Positions 6,763-23,840 of a stretch of DNA of 24,000 bases are shown here, piece by piece. The notes under the pieces are model-generated. The model was not told the DNA's origin, searched no databases, and saw only the letters and a list, made by a program, of their open reading frames with translations. The translations under genes and the position numbers were made by a program. Numbering within the stretch: the stretch's first letter is position 1; the number at the start of each line of letters is the position of its first letter. This DNA comes from Hadesarchaea archaeon (lineage in GTDB: Archaea > Hadarchaeota > Hadarchaeia > Hadarchaeales > Hadarchaeaceae): contig JAPDJH010000004.1 of assembly GCA_029259175.1 (NCBI GenBank), positions 163,645-187,644 on the forward strand, in the 5' to 3' direction.

Positions 6763-6814
6763 GGTTTCGATAACACCATTATACCCAACCCTATTTAAGC
6801 AGAGAACCGAAAAG

Positions 6815-7609: not shown

Positions 7610-8366
7610 AATCTTCATCTACCGAGATCCGGATCCCAATATTTTAAAGTGGACAGAACTTCGGGAGTACCTCAAAAAAAGAGTTGGATGCACGGTTGAG
7701 ATCCGGGAGCCCCTCTTCAAGCAAAACGAGTCTCTAGCCCGAGCATTCGCTGCAGCACGAGTCCATGACCCGCTAAAGCCGCTTGCGAATCGTGAGCCTC
7801 TCCCATCAGAAATCCAAATCGAAGAGAAATTTCTTGGGGCGCAAAAGCAGATCCCAGGAGTGCTCTACGACGGCCTCGAGATCCAGCGCCTGTGCCTCGG
7901 ACTTCTGCCCGTTGGAGAGCGAACGAGAGACCATCTCCACCTCGTCTTCGTCAACCGATTGATCGGGACATATGAACAGGACGGCCGCTATCACATTCAT
8001 GCTGCAGTTTTCGGCTTTCCTACTCTATTGTCTGTGCAGGGAGTTGTTTTTGGACCTGCAAGGCCAAAAGAATACTACACCCTGCGAGGCCAACTGAGCG
8101 AGGAGGAACTCTACGAGCGGCTCGAGCGCCGCTTTCTCGTGCTGGACGATCCGAGGCTGACCGAGGTCGTCAAGGGTTACGCGATACAAGCCGTTTTCTA
8201 CCACGTCTTCGGAAACCCGTTCTGCGAGAACAGTCAGTGCCGTCTCTACAATGCCCGCTGGCAGGAAGAACTGCTAAAGGCCCAGCTCAGCTCCCCTGAG
8301 TTCTGCGAGCGTCACGAACAAATGCTGCAAGAGTTCAAATCCGAAATCACTGGCACGCCCTGCTAA
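7587..8366 (+). CDS. archaemetzincin-like protein with degenerate active site (function unknown)
   Basis: The C-terminal block [42 protein letters not shown] follows the archaemetzincin spacing HExxHxxGx3Cx4CxM..CxxC. However, the first His and the catalytic Glu are replaced (A, V), M becomes L, and the last CxxC becomes CxxH. The gene overlaps the thi4 3' end by 23 nt. Confidence 0.45.
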
Positions 8367-9037
8367 GTCGCTGCTAAGGACTCCAAAAAGTCACTCAGAT
8401 CCTCGTCCAGCGTTTTAAGCTCAACGATTCTTTCCATCTCCCGCTCAACCAGCTGCCGCAGACCAATTCTGGCCTCGATTTCGTTCACCTCCCTCCGCTT
8501 CGCTGCGGTTCGTGGACGGCGAGGTGTCGCATAACAGCAGCTGGCATGAGTCTCCCGCCAGAGCCCCAGCTGCTTGGCGAGACGCTCGATCTCCAGCTTA
8601 TCCATCGCGAGTAGCGGCCGGAGGATCGGATATCGAATGCCCGCCGACACCGCCTGCAGGTTCTGCAACGTCTGCGACGCCTTCTGGCCCAGCGATTCGC
8701 CCGTGACTATCCCCGACGCCTCCACACGATCACACAGGAGCTCAGCGGCCATCAGCATCCCACGACGGCACAGCACGCACGCGTGTCTGCCAGCTTGGCG
8801 GAGCACGCATCTCAAAACCCGGCTCCACGGAAAGAGAAATGCGCGGGCAAACCGTGTCTTCCTTTTTAAAACACGTAAAACATCCACTGCCACGTAGAAA
8901 TTATCCTCGCATGTGTAGGGATAAAGAGCAAAGTGCACGGGAACTACTTCGAAGCCACGGGCCGCAAGCGCACACGCGACCGGAGAGTCTATGCCCCCCG
9001 ACACCAAACACACGACGCGCTCCACCAGCATTCCCAT
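8363..9037 (-). CDS. ThiI-like PP-loop ATP pyrophosphatase, stand-alone (no THUMP or rhodanese domain)
   Basis: PP-loop VVCLVSGGIDSPVA. ThiI-like block TGESLGQKASQTLQNLQAVSAGIRYPILRPLLAMDKLEIERLAKQLG. Cysteines CVLC and SCC. Only 136 bp of non-coding sequence lies upstream, so there is no room for an N-terminal THUMP domain. Confidence 0.75.
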   Translation of the reverse strand: MGMLVERVVCLVSGGIDSPVACALAARGFEVVPVHFALYPYTCEDNFYVAVDVLRVLKRKTRFARAFLFPWSRVLRCVLRQAGRHACVLCRRGMLMAAELLCDRVEASGIVTGESLGQKASQTLQNLQAVSAGIRYPILRPLLAMDKLEIERLAKQLGLWRETHASCCYATPRRPRTAAKRREVNEIEARIGLRQLVEREMERIVELKTLDEDLSDFLESLAAT

Positions 9038-9075
9038 CGCCTCATCGGCGGCCGCCTATATCAACCATTCGTTTT

Positions 9076-9089
9076 TATAACAACGTTAT
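9076..9089. promoter_or_regulatory. TATAACAACGTTAT box upstream of the ThiI-like gene
   Basis: An identical 14-mer recurs at 23841-23854. A 12/14 variant, TATAACGGCGTTAT, lies at 20864-20877. It contains ATAAC-N3-GTTAT dyad symmetry overlapping a TATA-like element. Confidence 0.5.
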
Positions 9090-9173
9090 GAATAAACTCG
9101 AGTTAAAACAATTGGCCGGAAAGACCAATAATTACTTCGACTGGAGTTCCGCTCAAAAACCTGAAACCCTGAA

Positions 9174-10382
9174 TCATTTTGAAATACTCAATCCGTATTT
9201 CTCTGCAATTTCCAAAAACGCCTCTGCAACTTTTTCTATTCGCTCACGGCTTAACCCGTACGTGTTCAATTTGAAATGCTTGGTTAAACCAGGCTGAATA
9301 CCAACTATTCCTCGATCTCTCAACTCCTCGTACAGAAAGAATCCCCTGCGCTTGTGATGTCGGGAAACTTCGTACAAACCCTCGGACTCCATGTGGATCA
9401 GCGTGTGATCTTTGGGCCTGACACCCAGCTGCCGCGTCCCCTCTATGCGCTCGAGCTGTTCAACCAGCCACCGGGCGTTCTCCACCTCCTCCGGCCATCT
9501 CTCGACTCGCTCGACCACGTGGGGAAAGGAGGCCATCATCGAAATGAGAGGACCACCCATCACGGTACAACCAAGCAGCGCGTATTCTTTTATGCTAAAC
9601 TTCCGTCCTGTCAGATCTCCCACGATCTGTGACGGCGCGAGCACTCGCTTCGCCATCTCCTTGGTCAGCGCAAGTACACCGGTGGAGGCACTCGCTGCCC
9701 AAGATTTATGACCGCTCCCTGTAATGATATCCGCTCCGAGCTCTCTCCCATCGATGGGCATCACACCCGCCGTGTAAGCGGCATTCAGCAAAAACGGAAC
9801 TTCGTACTCGTGAGCTATCTCTGCCACCCGTCTGGCATCGTTCAAATTGCCGTAGAGATAGTCCACATGGGTCAAAACCACGACCGCAGGCAATTTTCCG
9901 GTTTCGCGCTTTACCTCTTCTATCTTTGCCGCATAAGCATCGAGATCTACTCGAAATTCCGGATACCCGCTGTTCGGGACCTCTTTAATCTTCATCATGG
10001 CAAGCTCGGCCGCAACGTAGGTGGAATAGTGGGCCAGGCTGTCGATTACCACCACATCCCCCGGTCTACCAAGCATTCTGAACGCTATGAACTGCGCCTC
10101 GCGACACCGGGTCACGACACGCGCCACATCCATTCCAAGAAATTCCGCCAAGTCTTCAACGAAATCCGCTATGGGAGGCCGGGTAACCTTATCCAACCGG
10201 GGGGTTTTTGCAGGGCACCAATCACACGTAGAATACCCATCCCCAAATTCTGCCAATGCTTCTCTCGCCTCAGCGGTAAGAACCCCTCCACGCTGAATTG
10301 GATTGAGGTTGATATACCGATCCTCCTTAAAATCTCTCCTCAGATTCCGATACTTCTTCAGTCTCTCTTCGGAAAGCTTCAT
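9174..10382 (-). CDS. pscS: O-phosphoseryl-tRNA(Cys):Cys-tRNA synthase (SepCysS)
   Basis: The N-terminus is KYRNLRRDF..INLNPIQRGGVLTAEAREAL..FGDGYSTCDWC. The PLP-lysine block is ITGSGHKSWAASASTGVLAL. The 402-aa length and these motifs match SepCysS as I recall it from Archaeoglobus and methanogens. Its start overlaps the stop of the upstream E1 gene by 4 nt. Confidence 0.8.
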   Translation of the reverse strand: MKLSEERLKKYRNLRRDFKEDRYINLNPIQRGGVLTAEAREALAEFGDGYSTCDWCPAKTPRLDKVTRPPIADFVEDLAEFLGMDVARVVTRCREAQFIAFRMLGRPGDVVVIDSLAHYSTYVAAELAMMKIKEVPNSGYPEFRVDLDAYAAKIEEVKRETGKLPAVVVLTHVDYLYGNLNDARRVAEIAHEYEVPFLLNAAYTAGVMPIDGRELGADIITGSGHKSWAASASTGVLALTKEMAKRVLAPSQIVGDLTGRKFSIKEYALLGCTVMGGPLISMMASFPHVVERVERWPEEVENARWLVEQLERIEGTRQLGVRPKDHTLIHMESEGLYEVSRHHKRRGFFLYEELRDRGIVGIQPGLTKHFKLNTYGLSRERIEKVAEAFLEIAEKYGLSISK

Positions 10383-11173
10383 CCTCTACTCCTCCGGCCG
10401 CATATCTCACAGTGGGGATCGCGCTCAACTTTCATTACTTCAAACACCATCTCCATACCATCAAATATTAGCAACCGGCCTATCAATGGTCTCCCAAGAC
10501 CTGTGATCAGTTTTATCGCTTCCATTGCCTGCAAACAACCTATCACGCCCGGGGTTGCTCCGAGTACCGGGAATGCCCGCTTTCGCGGCGGGAGTGACGG
10601 AACCAAACACTGCAAACACGGCCCCTTCTTGGGCACAATAGTCATCAGCTGACCCAGGGTTCCCTCCACGGCCCCGTGAACAAGTGGAATTCTGTGCTTT
10701 ACACAGGCTCGGTTCAGCGCATACCTAGCAGGATAGTTGTCCGTGGCATCCACCACCACATCGGCACCGCGCACAAGAGGGTCCGCATTTTCGTTTGCCA
10801 CATGCAGAGATTTTCCCCTCACCCGCACATTTGGATTGAGAGCTCTCAGCTTCTCCATCGCCGAATCAGTTTTCTGGCGTCCGATGTCTTTATCCCAGTG
10901 CAAAATCTGACGATTGAGATTTGAGAGCTCTACTCGCTGATCGTCCACGAGCGTTAGCTTCCCCACACCCGCCGCTGTCAAATAAATACTGACCGGAGAC
11001 CCCAGACCGCCCAATCCTACAACCACCACATGCGCTCGCTTCAATTTGAGCTGACCTTTCCGACCAAAACCCGCAATCAACATCTGCCGACTATAACGTT
11101 CGAGTTCTTGAGGAGACAGTTTAGTCCTCATACCATTACCCTTTGGACTCCTGCTAAAAATACTTCCAACCAT
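10379..11173 (-). CDS. ThiF/MoeB/UbaA-type E1-like adenylyltransferase (no rhodanese domain)
   Basis: ERYSRQMLIAGFGRKGQLKLKRAHVVVVGLGGLGSPVSIYLTAAGVGKLTLVDDQRVELSNLNRQ. There are two CxxC pairs (CLQC and CEIC). The internal ATG at 11131 (MRTKLSPQELERYSRQ) is an alternative start. Confidence 0.9.
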   Translation of the reverse strand: MVGSIFSRSPKGNGMRTKLSPQELERYSRQMLIAGFGRKGQLKLKRAHVVVVGLGGLGSPVSIYLTAAGVGKLTLVDDQRVELSNLNRQILHWDKDIGRQKTDSAMEKLRALNPNVRVRGKSLHVANENADPLVRGADVVVDATDNYPARYALNRACVKHRIPLVHGAVEGTLGQLMTIVPKKGPCLQCLVPSLPPRKRAFPVLGATPGVIGCLQAMEAIKLITGLGRPLIGRLLIFDGMEMVFEVMKVERDPHCEICGRRSRG

Positions 11174-11176
11174 CGG

Positions 11177-11935
11177 TCAAGATTTTATACCGGGAACGAC
11201 TCCTCCACCAACCGGGACGGGACTCCTCTCATCAAAGGTTATAATCTCTGGAACCTCGCCCCAAACACCCACGTGTTCTCCACGTATTATCAGACATCCT
11301 TCTATCTCACGTATCCGGCTAGCCCGGTTCAACCCGTCTAAAATCGACTGTCGTGTGTCGGAACCGCGCACAGAATTCGCAACCGAAGTCGCAGCAGCGT
11401 CAGCTACCGAAGCCTCTCGGGCAAAGACCACGGTGGCGTCGGCATCGCCAAAACTAATCGAGTGTCCGATCGAACCAGAACTCGTACATATTCCGAGCGG
11501 CAATCTGGCCGATTTTATCAGAAAACCCAACTTACTGGATGTGCTGGCGGTGCCCGCATAAACTCCTACTATAAAATCTCGATCTCCCGCTATCGCAATG
11601 TCTCCACCATTTTCGACCAGCACATTCCTCGCTCCTTGCTCCAGAGCGGCCTCCATGGCTATCTGAGAAATCGCTCCGGCAACCGCTGCAAAAGGACCGA
11701 CCCGCGCAAGCTTTCCGGCCCTCAACATCAGCTCGATCACCCGCGGGTGTTCTCCCTCGAGCTCAACGGGTTCAAGTGACCAACGAAACTCTGGATAGGT
11801 CACAGCATAACGCTCCACCTCTTGTCTGGCCCTCAATGCCGCTTCTACCGCTGCATCGATCGCGCGCGCGTCGTCGGATTTTATAGTGAGTGCAGTCTCC
11901 TTGTAAACCCAGCGCTGAACGAGCAAATCCACCAC
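11177..11935 (-). CDS. UPF0280/COG2122 (ApbE-like) protein, MA1715-type sulfide-assimilation factor
   Basis: Blocks GPFAAVAGAISQIA, LVENGGDIAI, GICTSSGSIGHSISFGDADA and SVADAAATSVANSV match what I recall of the UPF0280 family. It lies between the NIL-ferredoxin and E1 genes. Confidence 0.6.
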   Translation of the reverse strand: MVDLLVQRWVYKETALTIKSDDARAIDAAVEAALRARQEVERYAVTYPEFRWSLEPVELEGEHPRVIELMLRAGKLARVGPFAAVAGAISQIAMEAALEQGARNVLVENGGDIAIAGDRDFIVGVYAGTASTSSKLGFLIKSARLPLGICTSSGSIGHSISFGDADATVVFAREASVADAAATSVANSVRGSDTRQSILDGLNRASRIREIEGCLIIRGEHVGVWGEVPEIITFDERSPVPVGGGVVPGIKS

Positions 11936-11936
11936 C

Positions 11937-12332
11937 TCACAACCTCGGAATCTTCAAAGCGCGCACCGGACACGCAGGAACACAGATCTCACACAAAACA
12001 CACTTCTGCTCATCCAGACCCAGCGAGGCATCCTCTTTCAGATACAATGCCTTGGTTGGACAGAGCGAAACACAAGCCCCACAGTGAACGCAGGAATCCC
12101 AGTCCACCCTGATCGCGTCTTTTATCTCTTGAAATTCTATTCCGCGTTTCGAGAGAGCGCTAAAAATCCGCTCCGCGTCCGAGTCCTTAACGGAAATCAG
12201 GATCTCCCCACCCTTTGTGTCCATGTCCGCATACAGGATGTTTACCAACACTCCCGTCTCTTTAATCACCGAAGCCAAAACAGGCTCCGCCGCTTTCTCC
12301 GCCGAGTATCGAAGCAAGATCCGCCTCGTCAT
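11937..12332 (-). CDS. NIL-domain / 2x[4Fe-4S] ferredoxin fusion (MA1822-type)
   Basis: An N-terminal NIL-like beta-alpha domain (RILLRYSAEKAAEPVLASVIKETGVLVNILYADMD) is followed by CVHCGACVSLCP and CVLCEICVPACP. Its start overlaps the upstream gene's stop by 4 nt. Confidence 0.8.
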   Translation of the reverse strand: MTRRILLRYSAEKAAEPVLASVIKETGVLVNILYADMDTKGGEILISVKDSDAERIFSALSKRGIEFQEIKDAIRVDWDSCVHCGACVSLCPTKALYLKEDASLGLDEQKCVLCEICVPACPVRALKIPRL

Positions 12333-13831
12333 TTTCTCCCACCTCCAATCAGCTTTGAAATATCATCGCTCGTCACTATCCCCCTGAGCCTGCCGCGAGC
12401 ATCAACAACCGGAACACCAGAGATCCCGAATTTATCCAGCTTTCTTGCAACGGCATCTATGGGCTCGTCTTCCCGCGCGGTTATCACCTGCCGTGTCATT
12501 ATTTCCGAAAGCTTCTGCTTGCCCTTTCCCACCGAAACCGCAATATCCCACGAAGTCACTATCCCGATCACGCGGTTTTCATCGTCCACAATGGGGAGGT
12601 GATCAAAGTTCTTCTCCGCGAATATCCGAGCCGCTTTGGTGATCGGATCCTCCGGCCTACCTACGACCACTTCGCGGGTCATTACCGCACCTGCCGTTAT
12701 GATCCGCGTCGGCTGTTTCATCGGGCGGAACTCCATATCCACAGGAAGCTGGCGCACCGGAGCGGTGAGGGAAAACTCCCCTCGCTCTATCAGCTCCTTG
12801 AGTTTCTCAGCGATTTCTCTCGCCACTTTGAGACTGCTGAGCGGACTGACCGGGACTTCCCGACCGTTCAATTCGATCTTGCCCTCCCACAGCTCCGCAT
12901 AGGTCAACTGCTTGAGCACCGGCCTGTCCCGTCGCGGAACTCCGTAGTCGAGCAAATCAATTTTAATCTCCTCATTGCTCCTGCCAGCGGTCCTCGCCAA
13001 ATCCTCGTCTAGAATCGGTATCGGAATCCCGATACCCACAAACAGCGATGTTCCATAGCGATGGATGTTCGCGCCACGCAGATACCGGGGTGACATCTCT
13101 TTTAAATCGCCCACCGTCATCAGCGTGCCCAGCTCTCGCTTCGGATCGTGCTGAGTGCCTTCCCAAACCACATATCCCTGAGCTCCGCCAATGAAAATTC
13201 GAGTTCCCGTGCCAATGGTCCGATAGGTGGGGTCTTTGTTCAGCGGACTGAGTTCCCCAGTACCAGCAAACGTAACGTTTCTGAATTCTGGAAGCAGGGT
13301 GCCCATATAGGTATAAATGGTCTCCTTCCGTGAATTGGTGGCAGCAACGTATCGTTGGTGAGCGTTTCTCGGATTCAGCAAAACGGCTTGGTTGAGGTCA
13401 TGGATGGTTATGGTCGTCTCCAGCTCCCTGCGCGGATAGCAATCGGTCCCGTATGCCAGAGCCCTAACATGGATCTCTTCGCCTCTGACCAAGTCCTCGA
13501 TCACGTGGCCTCCTCCATAGTCGAACCCCCGGGTTTCACTCAGCTGTGCGGCACCGATATATGCATCGACTGCTGCCACCCCTGTATACGCTTCGACATC
13601 GTTGAGCCAAACGCGTTGCATCTTGATGGGCGGATCAGCGTGCCCAAAGTTTAGCCAGGCACCCGAGCTACACATCGCACCAAACGTCCCGGTGGTCACC
13701 ACATCAACTTCTTTTGCCGCTGCTACGGCCCCCTTGCTCTTGACTATCTCGACCATCTCCTCGGCGGTAACGACCACGGCATCTCCACGCCTGATGCGCT
13801 CGTTGATTTCCTCGATTGTTTTCTTAACCAT
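12329..13831 (-). CDS. COG1900/DUF39 homocysteine-biosynthesis enzyme with two C-terminal CBS domains (MA1821/MJ0100-type)
   Basis: N-terminus KKTIEEINERIRRGDAVVVTAEEMVEIV...VDVVTTGTFGAMCSSGAWLNFGHADPPIKM. The C-terminal tandem CBS repeats are VMTREVVVGRPEDPITKAARIFAEKNFDHLPIVD and IMTRQVITAREDEPIDAVARKLDKFGISGVPVVD. Confidence 0.8.
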   Translation of the reverse strand: MVKKTIEEINERIRRGDAVVVTAEEMVEIVKSKGAVAAAKEVDVVTTGTFGAMCSSGAWLNFGHADPPIKMQRVWLNDVEAYTGVAAVDAYIGAAQLSETRGFDYGGGHVIEDLVRGEEIHVRALAYGTDCYPRRELETTITIHDLNQAVLLNPRNAHQRYVAATNSRKETIYTYMGTLLPEFRNVTFAGTGELSPLNKDPTYRTIGTGTRIFIGGAQGYVVWEGTQHDPKRELGTLMTVGDLKEMSPRYLRGANIHRYGTSLFVGIGIPIPILDEDLARTAGRSNEEIKIDLLDYGVPRRDRPVLKQLTYAELWEGKIELNGREVPVSPLSSLKVAREIAEKLKELIERGEFSLTAPVRQLPVDMEFRPMKQPTRIITAGAVMTREVVVGRPEDPITKAARIFAEKNFDHLPIVDDENRVIGIVTSWDIAVSVGKGKQKLSEIMTRQVITAREDEPIDAVARKLDKFGISGVPVVDARGRLRGIVTSDDISKLIGGGRK

Positions 13832-13897: not shown

Positions 13898-15493
13898 TCA
13901 AAACTCTCCACGCCGAATTTCCTCAATTTGCTGAACAAACTTGCGATATGCCTCCGTTTGCTTCAGCCGGTCCACATCCCGCTTGTACAGATCGTCCTGA
14001 AGCCTGCGTCCCGTCCTGCGCTCCCACTCCTCAATCGGAATCCCCTGGCTCTCTTGGTCCTTGTCCCGATACCACTCCGGAATGACATTGAACGCACAGA
14101 ACGGAATCACGCGCTTGTCAGTCATCGCGTAGTGAATACAGCAGCGCTTCACGCGTTCGATGTCGTAGTTGTACAAATCCATGAAGTGCATCATCCCGAT
14201 AAACAGACTCTTCATGTGGAACTGGCCGAGCGCATCGTAATTGTGCTTTATGAAAATGTTGTAGAGAATCTTATTGATATCCAGATCCTTCGGTTTTTGT
14301 TTGCCATCTATGAACTTGCCGATGCTGGCCAGCAGCTTGAGGCCCACCCATCGCTTGCTCTTCCCTTGCCTCAGCTCCTCCGTCTTCTCCTTCAGGTACT
14401 CCAGCAGGCCCTCAACATCGATGAACCGGGTGATCGGAATCAGCTTTCCGTTCTCTTTGAACACGTACGTCGCCGCACCGCAGGCGAAGTGGGAACTCAG
14501 ATCATAAGTGGGGTGACCCACAAGCGCCTCCACGAACTCGCTGATTATCATAGCAGTGGGGACCGGGAAGAAATCCTCCATCGTTATGGCCCCGTCGGTC
14601 TGCTCCTCTATCCGCTTGATTACATCAGGGATAGTGATGCGGTACTTGTCCCGCTCCTTCCGCGGCATGCGGCCCACCAGCGCCACCGGCTGAAAGTTCA
14701 CACTCCGGACGATGTCCATGTTCTTGAACCCGTACTTGAGGATGTCGCCGACCTCGTGATCGTTGACTGACTTAATCACCGTCGGCACCAAGACGATTCC
14801 GAGTCCCACCTTGCGGGCGTTCTCTATGGTCAATGGCACCTCCCAGTGGTTTTTCGGATTGGCTTGTTCTGAAACCCCATCAAAGCTGAGGTAGAGGGTG
14901 TTCACCCCTGCTTCCCGAACCCGCTTCACCAGCTCGGGATCGAACGCCAGCCGTATCCCATTGGTGTTGAGCTGAACGTGGTCGATCCCGTGCTTTTTCA
15001 CTATTTTAATGATGTCCACCAAATCGTCTCGAAGAAGCGGCTCTCCCCCCGTAAGCTGAACTGCGTTGCAGGCAATCGGGCGCTCACTTCTGATGACTCC
15101 CACCATCTCGTCGATTTGTTCCAGCGTCGGCTCGTAGACGTAGCCCACCTTACGGGCGAAAAAGAAGCAATACCAGCAACTGAGGTCGCAGCGGTTCGTA
15201 ACCACTATGTTCGCAAGCGCCGTGTGGCTCTTGTGGAGCTTGCAGAGACCGCAGTCTCGGGGACAGACGGGCGCCTCTTTGGTCACCTGCGGGTTCTCAA
15301 TTCCCTTCCCGTCCTTCGCGTAGCGCTCCGCCCGTCGATACCATTCATAGGATCCGTGGTACAAATCCTCAAATTCGCCGTGTTCCGGACAGGTTTTCTT
15401 GATCCACACCTTGCCGTCTCGTTCAAAGATAGTGGCCGGAAGGGTTCTCAAGCACTCCGGACAAAGCGAGGCGGTCTTTCTAATTTCTTGCAT
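13898..15493 (-). CDS. radical SAM enzyme with N-terminal Cys4-type ribbon and auxiliary cluster motif; MJ0619/Tes (tetraether lipid synthase)-like family
   Basis: CPEC...CPEHG ribbon, CPRDCGLC auxiliary motif, and the radical SAM CxxxCxxC motif (NRCDLSCWYC). GGEPLL is present. The length is 531 aa. The radical SAM call is firm. The Tes/GDGT-MAS family assignment is from memory of that family's N-terminal architecture. Confidence 0.8.
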   Translation of the reverse strand: MQEIRKTASLCPECLRTLPATIFERDGKVWIKKTCPEHGEFEDLYHGSYEWYRRAERYAKDGKGIENPQVTKEAPVCPRDCGLCKLHKSHTALANIVVTNRCDLSCWYCFFFARKVGYVYEPTLEQIDEMVGVIRSERPIACNAVQLTGGEPLLRDDLVDIIKIVKKHGIDHVQLNTNGIRLAFDPELVKRVREAGVNTLYLSFDGVSEQANPKNHWEVPLTIENARKVGLGIVLVPTVIKSVNDHEVGDILKYGFKNMDIVRSVNFQPVALVGRMPRKERDKYRITIPDVIKRIEEQTDGAITMEDFFPVPTAMIISEFVEALVGHPTYDLSSHFACGAATYVFKENGKLIPITRFIDVEGLLEYLKEKTEELRQGKSKRWVGLKLLASIGKFIDGKQKPKDLDINKILYNIFIKHNYDALGQFHMKSLFIGMMHFMDLYNYDIERVKRCCIHYAMTDKRVIPFCAFNVIPEWYRDKDQESQGIPIEEWERRTGRRLQDDLYKRDVDRLKQTEAYRKFVQQIEEIRRGEF

Positions 15494-15596: not shown

Positions 15597-16787
15597 ATGG
15601 AAAGCCCCTCCGCAAATCTCGTGCAGCAGGCTTTTCGAGAAAACCGGGAGCTCGCCCTCCGTTTGAGATCTCTCATCGATAGGCGCGGCACCGAAGTCGT
15701 GAAAAAAATGGGACTCGATCGAATCAAGATCATGAACTTCTGCGGGACCCACGAATGGACGACCGTGCACTACGGGCTCCGGTCCTTCCTACCCCCTTTT
15801 ATAGAGCTCGTTGCTGGCCCGGGCTGTCCCGTGTGCGTCACGCCCGGACACTACGTGCAAGAGGCTGTAAAGCTGGCAATGGACGGCGTAATAGTCTACA
15901 CCTATGGGGACTCCTTCAAGCTGAGGAGCACTTCAGGCCCCGGACCGCAGAGCTTGGCGGAAGCGCGGGCATCCGGGGGCGAGGTCCGGGTTGTGTACAG
16001 TTTCTTGGACGCCATAAGAGATGCGAAAAAACACGGAAAGCCATCTGTGTTCTTCGGTGTTGGATTCGAGACCACTGTGCCAGCATATGGATTTCCCCTT
16101 ATTCAAAACCATGTGCCAGAAAATCTGAAGTTTCTCTCCGTCTGCCGGCTGACACCGCCTGCGATGAAATACACCATCAAGCTGCACCAAGAGCGAGGCC
16201 TCCTGCCTATTTCTGGGGTCATCGCACCTGGACACGTGTCAACCATCATAGGTGCTGGAGAATGGGAGTTCCTCCCACGCGATTATTGTATGCCCACGGT
16301 AGTCGCCGGATTTGAACCGCTCGATGTTTTGATCGCTATCGCTCGGATTCTACAAATGGTGAAGAACAAGAAACCGGCCGTGGCGAATGAATACAGTCGC
16401 CTCGTACGCTGGGACGGAAACCCTGAAGCGAAGAAGGTGATCGAAGAAGTATTTGTTCCGACGTTTGCAGCGTGGCGCGGAATGGGATTCATTCCAAGGA
16501 GCGGACTCAGGCTCCGAGACCGGTATCAAAAACACGACGCATTTGTTCATTTCGGGATTAAGGATGTCGAACCGTCTAAATACGCGTTCACCCATGCGCA
16601 CTATGGGAGCCCGCCCGAAGCCGATTTGCCGCCCAACTGCAAGTGCGGCGAAGTCGTGACAGGCATATCGAAACCGACTGACTGTCCGCTGTTCATGCGT
16701 GGATGCACCCCCTCCAATCCGTGGGGGCCGTGCATGGTCTCCGTAGAAGGAACATGCATGATCTGGGCCAGGGAAAGGGGAGGATAA
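15597..16787 (+). CDS. hypD: [NiFe]-hydrogenase maturation protein HypD
   Basis: FCGTHEWT, GPGCPVCVTP, GFETT and PGHVS motifs, plus the C-terminal CKCGEV...CPLF..C...GPCMVSVEGTC. Confidence 0.9.
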   Translation: MESPSANLVQQAFRENRELALRLRSLIDRRGTEVVKKMGLDRIKIMNFCGTHEWTTVHYGLRSFLPPFIELVAGPGCPVCVTPGHYVQEAVKLAMDGVIVYTYGDSFKLRSTSGPGPQSLAEARASGGEVRVVYSFLDAIRDAKKHGKPSVFFGVGFETTVPAYGFPLIQNHVPENLKFLSVCRLTPPAMKYTIKLHQERGLLPISGVIAPGHVSTIIGAGEWEFLPRDYCMPTVVAGFEPLDVLIAIARILQMVKNKKPAVANEYSRLVRWDGNPEAKKVIEEVFVPTFAAWRGMGFIPRSGLRLRDRYQKHDAFVHFGIKDVEPSKYAFTHAHYGSPPEADLPPNCKCGEVVTGISKPTDCPLFMRGCTPSNPWGPCMVSVEGTCMIWARERGG

Positions 16788-16789
16788 AA

Positions 16790-17575
16790 ATGTGCCTAGG
16801 AGTGCCAGCGCGTGTAGAAGAGGTGCGCGGAATCACAGCGATTGCAGATTTTGGAGGGATCAAACGTGAAATCTTGGTCGGAGTGAAAGATTTGCAGCCG
16901 GGCGATCTGGTGATGGTTCATGCGGGAATGGCTATCGGCAAGCTCACGGAGGAAGCCGTGATAGAAAATCTAATGGTGTACAAAGAGCTTTTCGTTGCCG
17001 AGTCCTTGATGCGGGGGGAAAGCGAGGAAAGTGCAAAAAGAACCGCTGAGAAAGAAATAGAGAAAATTCTGGAAGAGTTGGGAGTGGAAAAACCCATGAT
17101 CAAAGAAACAGAGGACGTCAGAACAGCCGAGCAGGTGGAAACGCCCATTCCGCCCAATGCGTTCAAGCGCAGGTATCGGGCCTCGCTCTCTGATACGGAC
17201 TACCTGCAAGTGATGCACTACACCAACTATCTGCGCTATTGTGAGCGCGCACAACAAGAGCTGCTGGACTCTATAGGGTTCGGGTACGCCAAGCTGATCC
17301 ACCAACACGGTCTTTTCATCCCTACTGTTGAAACCTCTATCAGGCTCAAGGGACCCATCAGGCTGGACAACGAATTTGAGGTTGCCGTGTGGGTGGAAGA
17401 AATCGGTCGAAAACACATCCGCTTTAAAAACGTGATAAGGAACCTCACGTCTAACAAGATTGTGGCCGAAGCAACGACCATAGCGGTCTGCACCGACATC
17501 AGTCTGATGGAGGGGATGGAGCTTCCGGCAGAACTGGTGGAAAAACTCAGGCCATACATGGAGGGTGCGAAATGA
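16790..17575 (+). CDS. HypC-family chaperone fused to a 4HBT/YbgC-type hotdog thioesterase domain (261 aa)
   Basis: The start is at the ATG at 16790, 2 nt after the hypD stop and preceded by GGGAAAGGGGAGGA. The N-terminus MCLGVPARVEEV...GDLVMVHAGMAI is a hallmark HypC domain (Cys2, His). An acidic linker covers about aa 75-125. The C-terminal part is RRYRASLSDTDYLQVMHYTNYLRYCERAQQELLDSIGFGYAKLIHQHGLFIPTVETSIRLKGPIRLDNEFEVAVWVEEIGRKHIRFKN, which is the 4-hydroxybenzoyl-CoA thioesterase pattern including the DTD Asp. Confidence 0.85.
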   Translation: MCLGVPARVEEVRGITAIADFGGIKREILVGVKDLQPGDLVMVHAGMAIGKLTEEAVIENLMVYKELFVAESLMRGESEESAKRTAEKEIEKILEELGVEKPMIKETEDVRTAEQVETPIPPNAFKRRYRASLSDTDYLQVMHYTNYLRYCERAQQELLDSIGFGYAKLIHQHGLFIPTVETSIRLKGPIRLDNEFEVAVWVEEIGRKHIRFKNVIRNLTSNKIVAEATTIAVCTDISLMEGMELPAELVEKLRPYMEGAK

Positions 17576-17883
17576 GGGTGAAGGTGAGGCTGTTCGCGAA
17601 CTTCAGAGAGGTGATGGGGACGGGAAATCTCGAAGTTGAAAACGTGCACAATATCGGGGAGCTGCTAAGCAAACTCACCGAGATGAAAAGAGAAATGGAA
17701 AAAGAACTCTACTACCCCGGCACAAAAGAACTCGTAAAAACGGTGCAGATAATGCACAACGGAAAAAACGTCAAATTACCCCAGGGTCTTGAAGCGGAGC
17801 TGAAAGAGGGCGACGAGATTGCAATATTTCCGCCCGTGGCCGGGGGAGAGGGCTCGAACACATCAGCTTCTCATGTCTCTTAA
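17572..17883 (+). CDS. MoaD/ThiS-family ubiquitin-like sulfur carrier encoded as a pro-protein (GG followed by an 11-aa tail)
   Basis: The start overlaps the upstream stop in an ATGA. The C-terminal region DEIAIFPPVAGG is the classic MoaD end, but the ORF continues EGSNTSASHVS before the stop. The last 21 nt overlap the convergent XdhC-like gene. Confidence 0.85.
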   Translation: MRVKVRLFANFREVMGTGNLEVENVHNIGELLSKLTEMKREMEKELYYPGTKELVKTVQIMHNGKNVKLPQGLEAELKEGDEIAIFPPVAGGEGSNTSASHVS

Positions 17884-18660
17884 ACTTCTGCCGCTCGCAT
17901 CCGGTCTGCGCAGTACTTTGATGATTTCAGCCATTATGCTGACGGCGATTTCCGCTGGTGTTTCGGCGCCGATATCGAGACCCACTGGGGCATGAACACG
18001 TTCCAACCACTCTTTGGACACCCCGTCACGCACCAAACGTTCAAAGGTCATCTGGATTCGGGTCCTGCTGGCTAGCCACCCCACATAACGTGCGCGTGAG
18101 CCGGACAGCGCTTTGAGCGCCTCTTCATCTCCTTTGTGTCTCGATGCAATAACCACAAAGGTGTTTTCGTCGACTTCGATCTCGCGCGCGGCTTGTTCAA
18201 TCGGTTTCTGAAGCACTTTCACTCCTTGGAACTCGGAAGGATCAAGCGCAGGATCGACCACTGTGACTTGAAAGCCGTTTCTCTTTCCCAGCTCCGCCAG
18301 CTCGCGTCCCACGTGACCACCGCCGACTATCAAAAGCTTTGGTGGAGGGAGTATGGGCTCGATGTAGAGCCGAACAGTCCCGCCGCATTCCATTCCTACA
18401 CCGCCTCTAGACTCTTCAACCAAATCCAACTCGATCAACTTAGGCTGGCGTGTTCTGAGCACCTCAAGGGCCTCGTTCACCGCACTGCTTTCTATACAAC
18501 CGCCGCCGATGGATCCGATGGTCGAACCGTCTGGAAGAACGAGCATCTTTGCGCCCAGATCACGGGGAGAGGATCCCTTACGCCCGACCACAGTCACTAC
18601 GGCGAAGGGCTTTCCTTCAGCCATCAGTCGTCCCATTTCCGCAAGCACCTTGGGCTCCAT
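17863..18660 (-). CDS. XdhC/CoxI-family accessory protein (XdhC_CoxI N-domain plus Rossmann-like C-domain)
   Basis: FAVVTVVGRKGSSPRDLGAKMLVLPDGSTIGSIGGGCIESS, then LLIVGGGHVGRELAELGKRNGFQVTVVD and PVGLDIGAETPAEIAVSIMAEI. Confidence 0.85.
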   Translation of the reverse strand: MEPKVLAEMGRLMAEGKPFAVVTVVGRKGSSPRDLGAKMLVLPDGSTIGSIGGGCIESSAVNEALEVLRTRQPKLIELDLVEESRGGVGMECGGTVRLYIEPILPPPKLLIVGGGHVGRELAELGKRNGFQVTVVDPALDPSEFQGVKVLQKPIEQAAREIEVDENTFVVIASRHKGDEEALKALSGSRARYVGWLASRTRIQMTFERLVRDGVSKEWLERVHAPVGLDIGAETPAEIAVSIMAEIIKVLRRPDASGRSLRDMRS

Positions 18661-18685
18661 CCATTCTCCTTTTCTTCTAAAATTT

Positions 18686-19120
18686 ATGAGAATAGCGGGC
18701 GGAGATTTATCGGTGCTGATACGTAAACAGGACTACCAGCTCATTGCGGAACACGCACAGAAAGAGGCGCCCAACGAGGCCTGTGGAGCGCTGCTCGGAA
18801 AACACGAAAACGAAAAAATCGTTGTGGAACGAGTCGTGAAGGCAAAAAATATCCGCGAGTCCCCGGTGGAATACGAAATCTCAGCAGAAGAAATCTTGGA
18901 AATCTATAGGCTCGCTGAAGTGCTGGAGCTCGAGGTGGTCGGGTTTTACCACAGCCATCCGTTCCACGGTCCATTGTGGTCAACTGTGGACGACGAGCGT
19001 AGCAAGCTGTGGATCAACCACCTTTTCCTGATTTACTCCGTGGCCCAGAAGGAGGCCAGATGTTACAAACGAGTAGCCGAAAATCGTGTTGAGGAGGAGC
19101 CCATCGAAATCGTTGAATAA
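18686..19120 (+). CDS. JAMM/MPN+ metalloprotease (Mov34 family)
   Basis: The start is taken at the ATG at 18686; the track start at 18509 overlaps the XdhC gene. EACGALLG carries the catalytic Glu, and GFYHSHPFHGPLWSTVD is the HxHx7Sx2D motif. Confidence 0.85.
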   Translation: MRIAGGDLSVLIRKQDYQLIAEHAQKEAPNEACGALLGKHENEKIVVERVVKAKNIRESPVEYEISAEEILEIYRLAEVLELEVVGFYHSHPFHGPLWSTVDDERSKLWINHLFLIYSVAQKEARCYKRVAENRVEEEPIEIVE

Positions 19121-19310: not shown

Positions 19311-20519
19311 CTAAGCCAGCGATCTGGAGATCTCTTCGACTACTGAAATCAGCCTTTCGATTTCTTCTTTTTTATTGTACAAATAGACCGAAGCCCTCAC
19401 CGATCCCTGCGGTCGGTTCAGCACCTCTCTGTGCAGGGGCATCGCACAGTGGTGGCCCGAGCGCACCATTATTTTGGCAGCGTTATCCAAGGTCGCTGCA
19501 ACATCGTGGGGGCCAAGTCCCTCCACATTAAAAGCCACTATTCCTGTGCGCTTAGAGGGCGGTGGGCCATAGATCTCAACCCGCTCAATCGACGAGAGCC
19601 CATCATACAACTCGCGCGTAAGCTTTCGTTCGTGAGCCGCGATTGCTGTCATCCCGTGAGTGCGCAGATATCTTACCGCTTCAGCCAATCCAATTGTCTC
19701 AGCAATTGGTGGGGTGCCCGCCTCAAAACCTTCAGGCGGTTTAGCCAGCTTGTAACCCTTCGACGAAACCTCATCGATGGTGCCTCCGCCAATAGCTAGC
19801 GGATCGAGTTCTGCCAACGCGTCCGCTCGAGCATAGAGTACTCCTACGCCCGTGGGGCCCAGCATCTTGTGACCGGAGAAAACCAAAAAGTCACAACCCA
19901 GCTTGCGAACACTCACAGGCATGTGCGGCACCGACTGTGCACCGTCTACGAGGACTAGAGCACCATGCTCGTGGGCTATCCGAACCACTTCCTTGACTGG
20001 GAGAACACACCCAAGCACGTTCGACACATGAGTGACCGCCACGAGTTTTGTTTGGTCGGAAACAGCTCGTTCAAAATCATCCAACGAAATCTCCCCCTCA
20101 CGTGATGCGCGTACGAGAACCAAGCGCACACCGCAGTCTTGGGCGAGACGTTGCCATGGAATGAAATTCGAGTGGTGCTCGATAAGTGTTGTAACGATGT
20201 GGTCTCCTCTCTTCCACCGCAATCCTCTCGCTACAGCATTTATTCCCTCTGTAGCATTCTTTGTGAAAATGATTTCCTCTCGTGCCGACGCCGATATGAA
20301 ACGCTGAATCTCTCTGCGGGCCTCTTCCATCTCGTGTGTCGCCCGCTGGGAAAGCCGGTGCACCCCACGTTCCACGTTGGCGCGGTACTCGCGGTAAAAC
20401 GAAAGCATGCGCTCGATCACTGGCTCAGGGGTCAGACTGCTTGCAGCGTTGTCGAGGTATATGATGCCCGTATCGAGAATGGGAAAATCCTTTCTTATCC
20501 GATCTACTCGCAACATCAT
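19311..20519 (-). CDS. sufS: class II (SufS/CsdA-type) cysteine desulfurase
   Basis: YLDNAASSLTP, the PLP-lysine block FLVFSGHKMLGPTGVGVLY, and the group II active-site block RSGHHCAMPL. Confidence 0.9.
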   Translation of the reverse strand: MMLRVDRIRKDFPILDTGIIYLDNAASSLTPEPVIERMLSFYREYRANVERGVHRLSQRATHEMEEARREIQRFISASAREEIIFTKNATEGINAVARGLRWKRGDHIVTTLIEHHSNFIPWQRLAQDCGVRLVLVRASREGEISLDDFERAVSDQTKLVAVTHVSNVLGCVLPVKEVVRIAHEHGALVLVDGAQSVPHMPVSVRKLGCDFLVFSGHKMLGPTGVGVLYARADALAELDPLAIGGGTIDEVSSKGYKLAKPPEGFEAGTPPIAETIGLAEAVRYLRTHGMTAIAAHERKLTRELYDGLSSIERVEIYGPPPSKRTGIVAFNVEGLGPHDVAATLDNAAKIMVRSGHHCAMPLHREVLNRPQGSVRASVYLYNKKEEIERLISVVEEISRSLA

Positions 20520-20892: not shown

Positions 20893-21315
20893 ATGAAGCT
20901 CCTGATGCTTCACTGTGATTACTTCTCATTCGCCACCACCCAGCCAACCAAGTTTGCCGAGCAAGTGGGTGAAGAATGCAAGAGTTGCGGTATAAAGGAC
21001 ACGCTTGTGATCTTCACCACCGTCGAGCGCAAGGACGAGCGCGACCCTAAGGCCGTTGTGGAATGCGCCGTGCACGAAATAAACACCACCACCAAACGCT
21101 TGGGTGTGAGAAAACTGATAGTATATCCCTTCGTCCACCTCTCAGCCGAAGCTGGAAGCCCCCAAGCCGCAAAACACATAATCGACACGTTATACCAACA
21201 ACTACAGAGCGCCGGATACGAGGTCAAGAAAGCACCTTTCGGATGGGAAAAAGTGTTCTCGCTGACTTCCAAAGGACACCCCCTGTCAGAGTCTTTCAAA
21301 ACCATTGAAGTTTAA
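20893..21315 (+). CDS. free-standing archaeal ThrRS N-terminal editing-domain homologue (DTD-like fold)
   Basis: MKLLMLHCDYFSF..., LIVYPFVHLSAEAGSPQAA and KKAPFGWEKVFSLTSKGHPLSESFKTI parallel the Pyrococcus ThrRS N-terminal editing domain as I recall it ([49 protein letters not shown]). The ORF ends after 140 aa, with no synthetase or anticodon-binding domain. Confidence 0.7.
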   Translation: MKLLMLHCDYFSFATTQPTKFAEQVGEECKSCGIKDTLVIFTTVERKDERDPKAVVECAVHEINTTTKRLGVRKLIVYPFVHLSAEAGSPQAAKHIIDTLYQQLQSAGYEVKKAPFGWEKVFSLTSKGHPLSESFKTIEV

Positions 21316-21965: not shown

Positions 21966-22350
21966 GATACTCCTGCAGCGCCTTTTTCAAGGTCTTATAC
22001 GCCAGGACGGCACAGTGCATCTTGAGTGCTGGCAGTCCGCCAAGCGCATCGGTGATTTGTTTAATGGTGAGTTTCTCCGCTTCCTCGACACTCTTGCCTT
22101 TGATAAGTTCGGTGGTCATAGAACCCGTGGCTATGTTCGCCGCGCATCCGAACGACAGAAACTTGGCGTCGACGATTTTGTTGTTCTCGATTCTCAGAAA
22201 CATCTTGAACATGTCTCCGCACTGCGGGTCTCCCTCTACCGCCACCACTGTGGGATCCTTCATTTCTCCCATGTTCTTTGGATTCCGAAAGAGTTCGAGA
22301 ACTTTTTCCGTGTACCTCAGCAAACTGCGCTCGGTGTATTCGGCTGGCAT
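21937..22350 (-). CDS. iscU: IscU/NifU-N-type Fe-S scaffold
   Basis: The start is at the ATG at 22350, overlapping the iscS stop as TGATG. The three scaffold Cys are in their usual contexts (GDPQCGDMF, SFGCAANIA, LKMHCAVLA). Confidence 0.9.
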   Translation of the reverse strand: MPAEYTERSLLRYTEKVLELFRNPKNMGEMKDPTVVAVEGDPQCGDMFKMFLRIENNKIVDAKFLSFGCAANIATGSMTTELIKGKSVEEAEKLTIKQITDALGGLPALKMHCAVLAYKTLKKALQEYRAKSGGASA

Positions 22351-23522
22351 CACATTTCCTCCGGTTTTATCGGGCTGATCCGACGCAGGTCTTCTATGAC
22401 TCTTGGAAGGACTTCCAGTGCATGGTCGATTTCTTTTTCTTCTGTGAGCCACGTGAACGTGAAGCGGATTGCCCCATGTGCAATCTCTGGCTTGACCCCA
22501 ATGGCCGACAGCACATGGCTGGGCTCCAGCTTTCTTGTGGAACAGGCCGAACCGGTGGCTACAGCGATTCCGTGCATATCCAGCCGTAGAAGAATGGATT
22601 CTCCTTCGATCCCCTTAAACGAATAATTTACGTTCGCCGGACTGCGTTTTTCTCCTCGCGGACCATGCAGTACAACGTGTGGGATTTTATCCTCGATACC
22701 CTGCATGAGCCTCGCTTGGAGCTTCCGCATATGTGCTATGTGGGCATCAAAGTGGTCAAACGCAAGTTCAACGGCCTTGGCGAATCCCATTATGCCCGGG
22801 ATATTCTCGGTGCCTGGCCTCAGAGCTGAAAGCGAGATGTATCCGTAATCGATCGGCTCGATTCGTGTCCCCTCTCTCACGTAAAGCGCTCCAGCTCCTT
22901 TGGGGCCGTGAATCTTGTGAGCGCTTATGCTCAGCAAATCCACGCCCATGTGGCCAACATCTATCGGAACACGGGCATAACCAGCGGCGGCGTTTACGTG
23001 AAAATACGTGTGCTGATTCCGCTCTTTCACGATCTTGACTATCTCCTCAACGTTTTGTATCGTTCCGATCTCGTCGTTCACGTTTCCGATACTTACCAAG
23101 ATGGTTTCGTTGGTAAGCTTCTCTTCAACGGTTTTTGGATCGACAAATCCTTCACTGTCCACCGGCAGGTAATCCACTTTGAATCCCTCCTTTTCAAGCC
23201 GCTCACACACCCGAAGCACAGAAGGGTTCTCAACCTTGGTAGTTATGATGTGGCGACCGCGATTCCTGTTGGCATACGCTACCCCCCGGAGTGCGATATC
23301 GTTCGCTTCTGTGGCTCCCGAGGTAAACACGATCTCTTCTGGTTTTCCGCCGATGCTGTGCGCAATCACCTCTCGGGCCCGGTCGACCGCCGCGGCGGCG
23401 CGCGTGCCCAGCTCGTACAAGAAAATCGGATGACCAAAATCTTCCTCCATATACTTTCTCATTTCCTGTACAACTTGGGGGTGTGTCCAAGTGGTGCTCC
23501 CGCAATCCAGGTAGGCCTTCAT
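22350..23522 (-). CDS. iscS: class I (IscS/NifS-type) cysteine desulfurase
   Basis: The PLP-lysine block is LSISAHKIHGPKGAGALY and the active-site loop is ATGSACS. TSGATEAND is also present. The start overlaps the stop of the upstream HTH gene in an ATGA. Confidence 0.9.
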   Translation of the reverse strand: MKAYLDCGSTTWTHPQVVQEMRKYMEEDFGHPIFLYELGTRAAAAVDRAREVIAHSIGGKPEEIVFTSGATEANDIALRGVAYANRNRGRHIITTKVENPSVLRVCERLEKEGFKVDYLPVDSEGFVDPKTVEEKLTNETILVSIGNVNDEIGTIQNVEEIVKIVKERNQHTYFHVNAAAGYARVPIDVGHMGVDLLSISAHKIHGPKGAGALYVREGTRIEPIDYGYISLSALRPGTENIPGIMGFAKAVELAFDHFDAHIAHMRKLQARLMQGIEDKIPHVVLHGPRGEKRSPANVNYSFKGIEGESILLRLDMHGIAVATGSACSTRKLEPSHVLSAIGVKPEIAHGAIRFTFTWLTEEKEIDHALEVLPRVIEDLRRISPIKPEEM

Positions 23523-23818
23523 TTCAAGGCCCCTTTCTTCGAAAGCTCGGCACAGATATGACAGTAGATCTGAGAAAATTCCTCGTCTCTGCGTTCCTCC
23601 GCCACTATTTGTTCAACCAGCTCATCTATCACCGACATTATTCCGTATCGGCGCAGGACTGATTGATATCGTGAGCCCCTAAGCCTGTTCAGATACTGGC
23701 TAACCGCTGGCTGGGTGATGCCCAAACGCTCGGCTATCTCGGTTTGCTTCATTCTGTGCTTCTCCGCCAGCTTTTTCACAACAGCTACACGAACGGCCGG
23801 CAGAATCCGCTTGACCAT
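23519..23818 (-). CDS. small HTH transcriptional regulator with C-terminal CxxC (candidate regulator of the isc operon)
   Basis: HTH segment MKQTEIAERLGITQPAVSQYLNRL, with a C-terminal YCHIC. The start is placed at the internal ATG at 23818 (MVKRILPAV...), because a TATA-like box at 23841-23850 abuts the track start at 23839. That box sits about 25-28 nt from 23818, which fits a leaderless mRNA. Confidence 0.65.
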   Translation of the reverse strand: MVKRILPAVRVAVVKKLAEKHRMKQTEIAERLGITQPAVSQYLNRLRGSRYQSVLRRYGIMSVIDELVEQIVAEERRDEEFSQIYCHICAELSKKGALK

Positions 23819-23840
23819 GAGTTCACATTTCGGTCGCATC

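Follow-up and report, generated by a model that had tools for sequence, protein, structure and literature searches.

A conserved HypC-thioesterase fusion protein in uncultured archaea

Why should a chaperone of [NiFe]-hydrogenase maturation carry a thioester-cleaving enzyme on the same polypeptide chain? The question is raised by an open reading frame (ORF) in a 24,000-nucleotide stretch of DNA from a Hadesarchaea archaeon (contig JAPDJH010000004.1, positions 163,645 to 187,644 of the forward strand; hereafter, the window), in which the chaperone HypC is joined to a hotdog-fold thioesterase domain. The N-terminal cysteine of HypC, together with HypD, a [4Fe-4S] scaffold partner, holds the iron around which the Fe(CN)2CO group is assembled. 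We found that this HypC-thioesterase fusion is real, conserved and previously undescribed. By tying a thioester-cleaving enzyme to HypC, it offers a concrete protein and a catalytic residue, D137, for the question of where the CO ligand comes from.

The fusion ORF is uninterrupted, running from an ATG at 16790 to a TGA at 17573-17575 (Table 1); an alternative in-frame start further upstream, at 16703, was dismissed because the homologues all start with Met-Cys. The N-terminal half is a complete HypC domain. The Pfam family PF01455 (HupF_HypC) covers residues 1-61 with an E-value of 7e-18 and 65 bits against a cutoff of 28.5, the NCBIfam HypC subfamily model TIGR00074 is passed as well (51.5 versus a cutoff of 48), and the HypC of Thermococcus kodakarensis (PDB 2z1c) matches residues 1-67 at an E-value of 1e-14, with further matches to 3vyr and 2ot2. 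The protein begins with MCLGVP, where Cys2 is encoded at 16793-16795, and His44 (codon 16919-16921), located in a VHAG motif, is the conserved HypC histidine (His51 in E. coli), which is invariant in the family alignment. In an AlphaFold2 (AF2) model built from an alignment of 32 sequences, with a mean predicted local distance difference test score (pLDDT) of 83, this half consists of beta-barrel strands spanning residues 5-52 and a helix at 54-74, with pLDDT values of about 76-92. The model further pairs the C-terminal helix of HypC with a second helix to form a helical hairpin, the second helix being absent from the 75-residue HypC. The linker that follows is predicted to be disordered, with pLDDT below 50 at residues 105-115.

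The C-terminal half is matched over residues 133-253 by two Pfam thioesterase families, 4HBT_2 (PF13279; E-value 5e-14, 53.2 bits versus a cutoff of 25.5) and 4HBT (PF03061; E-value 1e-7, 32.4 bits versus 20.6). In the AF2 model, the hotdog domain occupies residues 121-256, mostly with pLDDT 84-94, and a Foldseek search aligned it with the YbgC structures 1s5u, 5t06 and 5v10 at a template modelling (TM) score of 0.90, a root-mean-square deviation of 1.8-2.1 A and an E-value of about 1e-11. The sequence matches of this half in the PDB include 5v10, at an E-value of 1e-16, along with aq_1494, 1s5u and 5kl9. The catalytic aspartate D137 (codon 17198-17200), within an SDTD motif, aligns with the DTD of 5v10 and the ETD of 2egi and 1z54; we take the reference positions to be D18 in YbgC and D17 in the Pseudomonas 4HBT enzyme. 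Because the NCBIfam cutoffs for the tol-pal YbgC equivalog and the YbgC/FadM subfamily were all missed (TIGR02799, 61.4 versus 141; NF008065, 41.5 versus 185; TIGR00051, 64.3 versus 68.7), the domain is best described as YbgC-like and is no YbgC orthologue. Thus, the description in the earlier note on this DNA, a HypC domain with MCLGVP and the conserved histidine, joined through an acidic linker to a YbgC/4HBT-like core with a DTD aspartate, is borne out by Pfam, alignment, AF2 and Foldseek, and the thioesterase fold on which that note depended is supported by both profile and structure searches. Both domains retain the residues that are essential for function and, judging by these residues, look functional. 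The existing public labels each cover one half of the protein, 'HypC/HybG/HupF family hydrogenase formation chaperone' at NCBI and 'acyl-CoA thioester hydrolase' at JGI.

The junction, which the earlier note flagged for verification, is genuine. Among 5.8 billion proteins searched, 58 further protein clusters contain full-length proteins with both Pfam domains, at 39-73% identity to the window protein; the continuous ORF, combined with about 60 homologues of the same architecture, rules out an assembly or frameshift artefact. When 1.84 billion representatives were searched exhaustively with a profile, four representatives of the fusion at 50% clustering were returned, and the family was clearly set apart from generic HypCs and thioesterases. 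The same architecture, the presence of which in other genomes had been left to be checked, occurs at 24 loci in GTDB species genomes, all from uncultured archaea. The host labels are Hadarchaeota, Hadesarchaea and Hodarchaeaceae, one 'Geoarchaeota', Nitrososphaerota and Nitrososphaeria, and Desulfurococcales, Desulfurococcaceae, Sulfolobales and Thermoproteota; the named sequences that match the window fusion best are Hadarchaeota proteins (53-59% identity). Split orthologues with a stop codon in the linker were not confirmed among the relatives. The candidate split form P0059 was rejected as a truncation at a contig end, with hypE and hypF following it, and P0061, a free thioesterase of the fusion type, lies on a 1.1-kb contig with no usable neighbourhood. 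A word-index search with the thioesterase domain alone recovered only three family members. A full-text search of open-access papers and bioRxiv yielded no paper describing a HypC-thioesterase fusion, in agreement with the earlier note, although absence from such a search is not proof.

Within the family, the two halves are held to different degrees. In mean pairwise identity, the thioesterase leads with 63%, ahead of HypC (51%), the extra helix (42%) and the linker (16%), so that the thioesterase is the most conserved and most constrained part of the fusion. The linker measures 23-36 residues across the family and, in 29 of 32 members, contains more Asp and Glu than Lys and Arg. At 31 of 33 loci, the codon after the start codon is one for cysteine. 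Furthermore, the HypC and thioesterase halves co-evolve: their identities are correlated across the family (r = 0.79), with none of 2000 Mantel permutations reaching as high a value, and this correlated divergence is consistent with the halves having been fused once and having evolved together since.

The motif [LV][SA][DE][TM]DYL in the catalytic DTD region is found in 60 of 60 family proteins, with D137 invariant. This finding bears on the possibility that the hotdog domain plays a structural role, oligomerising HypC, for instance to match two HypCD units per HypE dimer, with catalysis being irrelevant. Hotdog domains assemble into dimers and tetramers, and those of the 4HBT class are obligate oligomers, which counts for such a role, as do the PDB matches of the domain, with 2-12 chains per entry, and the HypCD-HypE stoichiometry, which has been described (PMC12134894). 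Nevertheless, an invariant aspartate and motif would be unexpected in a purely structural module, and we consider this explanation very unlikely.

Several variants of the family are on record. The 'long HypC' proteins P0062-P0068, P0071, P0075, P0077 and P0083 comprise 95-129 residues and share the helical hairpin, with no thioesterase; they may be truncated gene calls or else a true subfamily of extended HypCs, from which the fusion may have descended. The 216-residue variant P0057 (L116, 899-1549) lacks the second helix and has a linker of only about 10 residues; it is still located downstream of hypD and adjoins genes for NDK, FeS_assembly_P, NifU and a cysteine desulfurase. At L006 (9990-9995) and L021, which belong to one species, the codon preceding the conserved cysteine is ACG, not ATG, GTG or TTG, with GGAG 5 nucleotides upstream, and the called start is a downstream GTG that would remove Cys2; the ACG may be a non-canonical start or the mark of a degenerate copy.

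Genomic context ties the fusion to hydrogenase maturation. In a survey of 30 distinct fusion-carrying loci, hypD was found directly upstream of the fusion in 19, and complete hydrogenase and hyp clusters are present at L005, L008, L019, L020 and L117. Four Nitrososphaeria-type loci share the order hdr-like genes, mvhD, the NiFe small subunit, the large subunit, hycI, hypD, fusion, hypE and hypF. At L117, where the fusion is 48% identical, genes for a group-1-like small subunit, an Fe-S protein and the large subunit come first, with hycI, and then hypE, hypD, the fusion, a gene for a ParA-type ATPase, hypA, hypF and another hypA; at L015, hypD, the fusion and hycI are located next to a group-1-like hydrogenase. 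In the Hadarchaeota loci L013, L014 and L016, as well as in the truncated L009, hypE and/or hypF adjoin. A search with a hidden Markov model of the HypC domain detected no second hypC ORF within 10 kb at any locus. As the only hypC in these hydrogenase and hyp clusters, the fusion is the HypC of the hydrogenase maturation machinery of these hosts, and we are highly confident that it is a genuine hydrogenase-maturation HypC carrying a thioesterase that is predicted to be active.

The partner encoded next to the fusion conforms to this assignment. The window HypD matches the Pfam HypD family at an E-value of 1e-120, the NCBIfam hypD equivalog with 349 bits against a cutoff of 192.8, and the T. 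kodakarensis HypD (PDB 2z1d) at an E-value of 3e-80. It contains the motifs CGTHE, GPGCPVC, GFETT and PGHVS and the C-terminal cysteine cluster, as in hydrogenase-linked HypDs.

A separate feature of the HypDs that accompany the fusion is a His-rich insertion of about 11-14 residues (Y-x-F-T-H-A-H-Y/H-G) that is missing in the T. kodakarensis HypD. In the window protein, it corresponds to residues ~312-326 (nucleotides ~16530-16575). The THAH core is kept in the examined HypDs of the Hadarchaeota, Geoarchaeota and Nitrososphaeria types and is replaced by TTAT or TTAS in three Desulfurococcales HypDs.

The active site of the fused domain combines a common catalytic set with features of its own. 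The nearest free-standing thioesterases, to which the family profile gives about 95-114 bits and which are approximately 32-44% identical, share T136, D137, H143, N146, E152, P178 and N218 with the fused domains. Immediately after the catalytic aspartate, Y138-L139-Q140 is invariant in the fused domains, whereas the free enzymes have Ala-Ala-Gly; similarly, T179 is invariant in the fused domains at a position where the free ones have Arg. Further invariants of the fused subfamily are C151, H171, W201 and C234-T235-D236. At the level of sequence, these subfamily-specific invariants suggest a distinct substrate pocket.

What, then, might the substrate be? The earlier note held that the CO ligand's source in anaerobes is unresolved and that the fusion hints at a thioester-derived ligand. 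On the first point, a 2025 review agrees: it names the anaerobic origin of CO as the most pressing of the open questions, considers formyl-CoA as a candidate, describes how HypX handles formyl-CoA to supply CO to HypCD, and reports that HypD carries a motif resembling those of CoA enzymes (PMC12134894). In addition, native mass spectrometry of E. coli HypC has revealed adducts that depend on Cys2, with masses of +26 Da and +28 Da; the authors ascribe them to acetyl-derived and formyl groups and regard them as possible precursors of CO (PMC10847431). Because an acyl or formyl group on the sulfur of a cysteine forms a thioester, such adducts on Cys2 would be thioesters. Moreover, the structural matches of the hotdog domain include SgcE10, CalE7 and EspE7, 4HBT-class hotdogs that act on protein-tethered thioesters and thus set a precedent for this type of action. 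We infer that the thioesterase of the fusion acts on a thioester connected to HypC chemistry. The tethered domain would bind the CoA ester of a small acyl or formyl group, or a thioester of another kind, which would be processed at the HypC Cys2/HypD iron site via Asp137, with the outcome that either a CO precursor is supplied or adducts are cleared. The reading that we favour, tentatively and at less than even chances, is a CO-precursor role, in which the domain would deliver or convert a thioester of a small acyl or formyl group at this site; it would then correspond in function, in anaerobic archaea, to the HypX domain that decarbonylates formyl-CoA. A narrower version, in which the hotdog domain loads HypC Cys2 with an acyl group, or converts such a group there, at the HypCD iron and is the CO-ligand enzyme under anoxic conditions, appears doubtful. 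If this version is true, the domain would be the first enzyme to which the synthesis of the CO ligand under anoxic conditions is assigned.

The alternative outcome is the clearing of adducts. The domain could be a protective or proofreading deacylase that removes unproductive S-acyl adducts from HypC Cys2 or from cysteines of HypD or HypE, much as type II thioesterases clean carrier proteins. Acyl-CoA adducts would form more easily at high temperature, and the named lineages of the host metagenome-assembled genomes are presumably mainly thermophilic or subsurface ones. The invariant catalytic aspartate is of the hydrolase type, the flexible tether of 23-36 residues suits action within the same complex, and a protective function would explain why the domain is an accessory of few lineages instead of being universal. 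The +26 Da adduct of E. coli HypC, which is abundant and depends on Cys2, could itself be an acetyl-derived side product (PMC10847431). However, other hyperthermophiles, such as T. kodakarensis, cope with a HypC of 75 residues, and the distinctive invariants of the active site suggest a specific substrate over a general clean-up. We regard the deacylase as possible, if on balance unlikely; were it correct, acylation of Cys2 would be shown to be physiologically relevant.

Several observations weigh against a CO-precursor role of the fused domain. Most anaerobes mature their hydrogenases without such a domain, which therefore cannot serve as a universal route to CO; the fusion is rare, as the above four representatives at 50% clustering and its occurrence in 24 GTDB species, all of them uncultured archaea, indicate; and plain hydrolysis of formyl-CoA yields formate, not CO. 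The AF2 model shows no confident packing between the fusion domains (predicted TM score 0.53). At 80 metagenomic loci of the nearest free-standing thioesterases, none had hypC, hypD, hypF or hydrogenase genes within the 5-kb flanks (0/80), so that a wider hyp linkage of the thioesterase subfamily was not found at these loci, and the hyp association is a property of the fused subfamily only. Furthermore, 11 loci of the Sulfolobales/Desulfurococcaceae type have no hypD within 10 kb of the fusion, and in the window itself, no hypE, hypF, hypA, hypB or hydrogenase genes were found, the hypD-fusion pair being placed among sulfur-relay genes.

The last three observations lead to two further explanations. 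The first is a mechanistically unlinked fusion, that is, a metabolic acyl-CoA thioesterase kept on HypC for co-expression or stability, with the halves working independently. Apart from the absence of hyp genes near the closest free enzymes, the similarity of the domain to generic YbgC/FadM enzymes fits this explanation, and so does the setting of the 11 stand-alone fusions, whose neighbours are 2-oxoacid:ferredoxin oxidoreductase genes, the products of which make acyl-CoA, together with a ~95-residue ORF, an H+-pyrophosphatase and ThiI. Yet, three or more deep archaeal lineages have kept the fusion, at identities as low as 39%, and no split form of it was confirmed; its halves co-evolve; the thioesterase is more conserved than HypC and has an active-site signature specific to the subfamily; and Cys2 and His44 are kept in the HypC half even at the stand-alone loci. 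Independence of the two halves thus appears quite improbable. The ~95-residue ORF always flanks the stand-alone fusions (L002, 9574-9864, minus strand; L004, 9585-9872, minus; L006, 9533-9844, minus; L007, 10999-11289, plus; and 7 more loci). It has no significant match in Pfam or NCBIfam, the single sub-threshold hit being UCH_N with an E-value of 0.02 at L002, and it could encode a partner protein of the stand-alone fusion.

The second explanation concerns the window: a non-hydrogenase pathway specific to this locus and tied to the sulfur-relay genes, with the enzyme acting, for example, on the thioester or thiocarboxylate of a ubiquitin-like protein. In the window, hypD, the fusion and a gene for a SAMP1/MoaD-like ubiquitin-fold protein are tightly packed, with a gap of 2 nucleotides between the first two and an overlap of the fusion TGA with the ATG of the third (ATGA). 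The SAMP1-like gene is probably co-transcribed with the fusion; a functional link between them is uncertain. Genes for XdhC, a JAMM protease and a cysteine desulfurase follow, and genes for ThiF, ThiI, HcyBio and a SepCysS-like enzyme lie upstream; apart from the hypD-fusion pair, the 24 kb are free of hyp and hydrogenase genes. The order hypD, fusion, SAMP1-like gene recurs at L001, the locus of a 73% identical relative, where the set of XdhC, JAMM and cysteine desulfurase beyond the SAMP1-like gene is also conserved, in place of hypE and hypF; at L018, XdhC follows the fusion. Against this explanation, both the HypD and the fusion of the window are clearly orthologous to the hydrogenase-linked proteins and retain every motif; in other Hadarchaeota, hypE and hypF adjoin; hyp genes are often scattered around a genome; and one stretch of 24 kb is a small sample. 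Accordingly, the suggestion in the earlier note that the HypCD scaffold is put to a non-hydrogenase use runs counter to most loci, with their hydrogenase and hyp clusters, and is conceivable for the window and the 11 loci without hypD; the pathway tied to the sulfur-relay genes is, in our assessment, hardly to be expected.

Table 1. Features of the window, in window coordinates, with the basis of each assignment
Feature	Coordinates	Strand	Basis and remarks
HypC-thioesterase fusion gene	16790-17575	+	261 residues plus stop; ORF reading, Pfam, homologues
HypC domain, residues 1-72	16790-17005	+	PF01455, match to T. kodakarensis HypC, AF2
Second helix, residues ~73-99	17006-17086	+	AF2 helix 79-96; conserved
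Variable acidic linker, residues ~100-120	17087-17149	+	Low pLDDT, low identity
YbgC/4HBT-class hotdog thioesterase domain, residues 121-261	17150-17572	+	Pfam, PDB matches, Foldseek
hypD, 396 residues	15597-16787	+	Ends 2 nucleotides before the fusion; Pfam, NCBIfam, PDB
SAMP1/MoaD-like ubiquitin-fold gene, 103 residues	17572-17883	+	SAMP1 81 bits versus cutoff 60; Pfam ThiS
XdhC-family maturation factor	17863-18660	-	AOR-type-related, below cutoff
JAMM protease	18509-19120	+	True start likely ~18710; Pfam match from residue 76
Class-V cysteine desulfurase	19311-20519	-	
Tetraether lipid synthase Tes (radical SAM)	13898-15493	-	NCBIfam 741 bits versus cutoff 450
Sulfur-assimilation island, dense, archaeal	6761-13831		Includes Thi4, DUF6775/DUF7001, ThiI-like PP-loop protein
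Free-standing archaeal ThrRS editing-domain protein	20893-21315	+	
Second class-V aminotransferase/cysteine-desulfurase-like gene, ArsR-type regulator	22350-23839	-	Near the ThrRS editing-domain gene

The neighbouring genes show features of their own. The Gly-Gly of the SAMP1-like protein is followed by an 11-residue tail, GGEGSNTSASHVS; the counterpart at L001 (~10761-11099) has a tail of 20 residues with an unrelated sequence. A tail beyond the Gly-Gly implies a precursor that requires C-terminal processing. The JAMM/MPN+ protease gene is located 0.8 kb downstream of the SAMP1-like gene, and the tail of the latter overlaps the 3' end of the convergent XdhC gene by 21 nucleotides. The JAMM ORF as listed (203 residues) overlaps XdhC; its L001 orthologue comprises 136 residues. 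Tes, which is divergent from hypD in the window, is also found at L001 (5914-7509), L005 (16962-18533), L008 (16961-18556), L019 and L020, and its distance from the fusion stays within about 7 kb even in relatives that are only about 49% identical; this recurrence could reflect residual synteny or something more. The sulfur-assimilation island additionally contains a SepSecS/SepCysS-like pyridoxal phosphate enzyme, a ThiF E1-like protein, an unannotated 252-residue ORF, a NIL-ferredoxin, and HcyBio (homocysteine synthesis of the COG1900 type) with CBS domains. On the far side of the fusion, the order of the ThrRS-editing protein, the class-V aminotransferase-like gene and the ArsR-type regulator is conserved at L001.

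Taken together, these results place the fusion among known systems as follows. With HypC and HybG (E. coli HypC, 2ot2; T. kodakarensis HypC, 2z1c and 3vyr), it shares the Met-Cys start, the beta-barrel, the histidine, the C-terminal helix and the adjacency to hypD; however, the known HypCs are single-domain proteins of 75-90 residues, whereas the fusion, at 261 residues, adds a second helix, a disordered tether and an enzyme domain. The extended HypCs of the HupF type (R. leguminosarum HupF; PDB 3d3r, 103 residues) likewise consist of a HypC core with a C-terminal extension, but those extensions are short and non-enzymatic. Enzymes of the YbgC/FadM/4HBT class (E. coli 1s5u and 5t06, P. aeruginosa 5v10, A. 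aeolicus aq_1494, 2egi) have the same fold and the N-terminal DTD aspartate; the fusion domain differs in being archaeal and fused to HypC, in having Y-L-Q after the aspartate, and in the Thr that replaces the conserved Arg of its closest free relatives.

The comparison with HypX, the CO-ligand synthase of aerobic Cupriavidus and Rhizobium, is one of functional analogy only. Both are lineage-restricted accessory maturation enzymes, HypX handling a CoA thioester and the fusion possibly doing so; HypX, however, is a separate bacterial protein, used under oxic conditions and built of formyltransferase and crotonase-like domains, whereas the fusion domain is a hotdog, and neither HypX-type domain, the N10-formyl-tetrahydrofolate transferase or the crotonase-like decarbonylase, has a Pfam or NCBIfam match in the fusion. 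Finally, in the HcgE/HcgF step of making the FeGP cofactor of [Fe]-hydrogenase, a protein-bound thioester is the precursor of the organometallic acyl-iron ligand. Although HcgE and HcgF serve another hydrogenase class and belong to other families, such that no homology is claimed, they provide a chemical precedent for the transfer of carbon from a thioester to iron.

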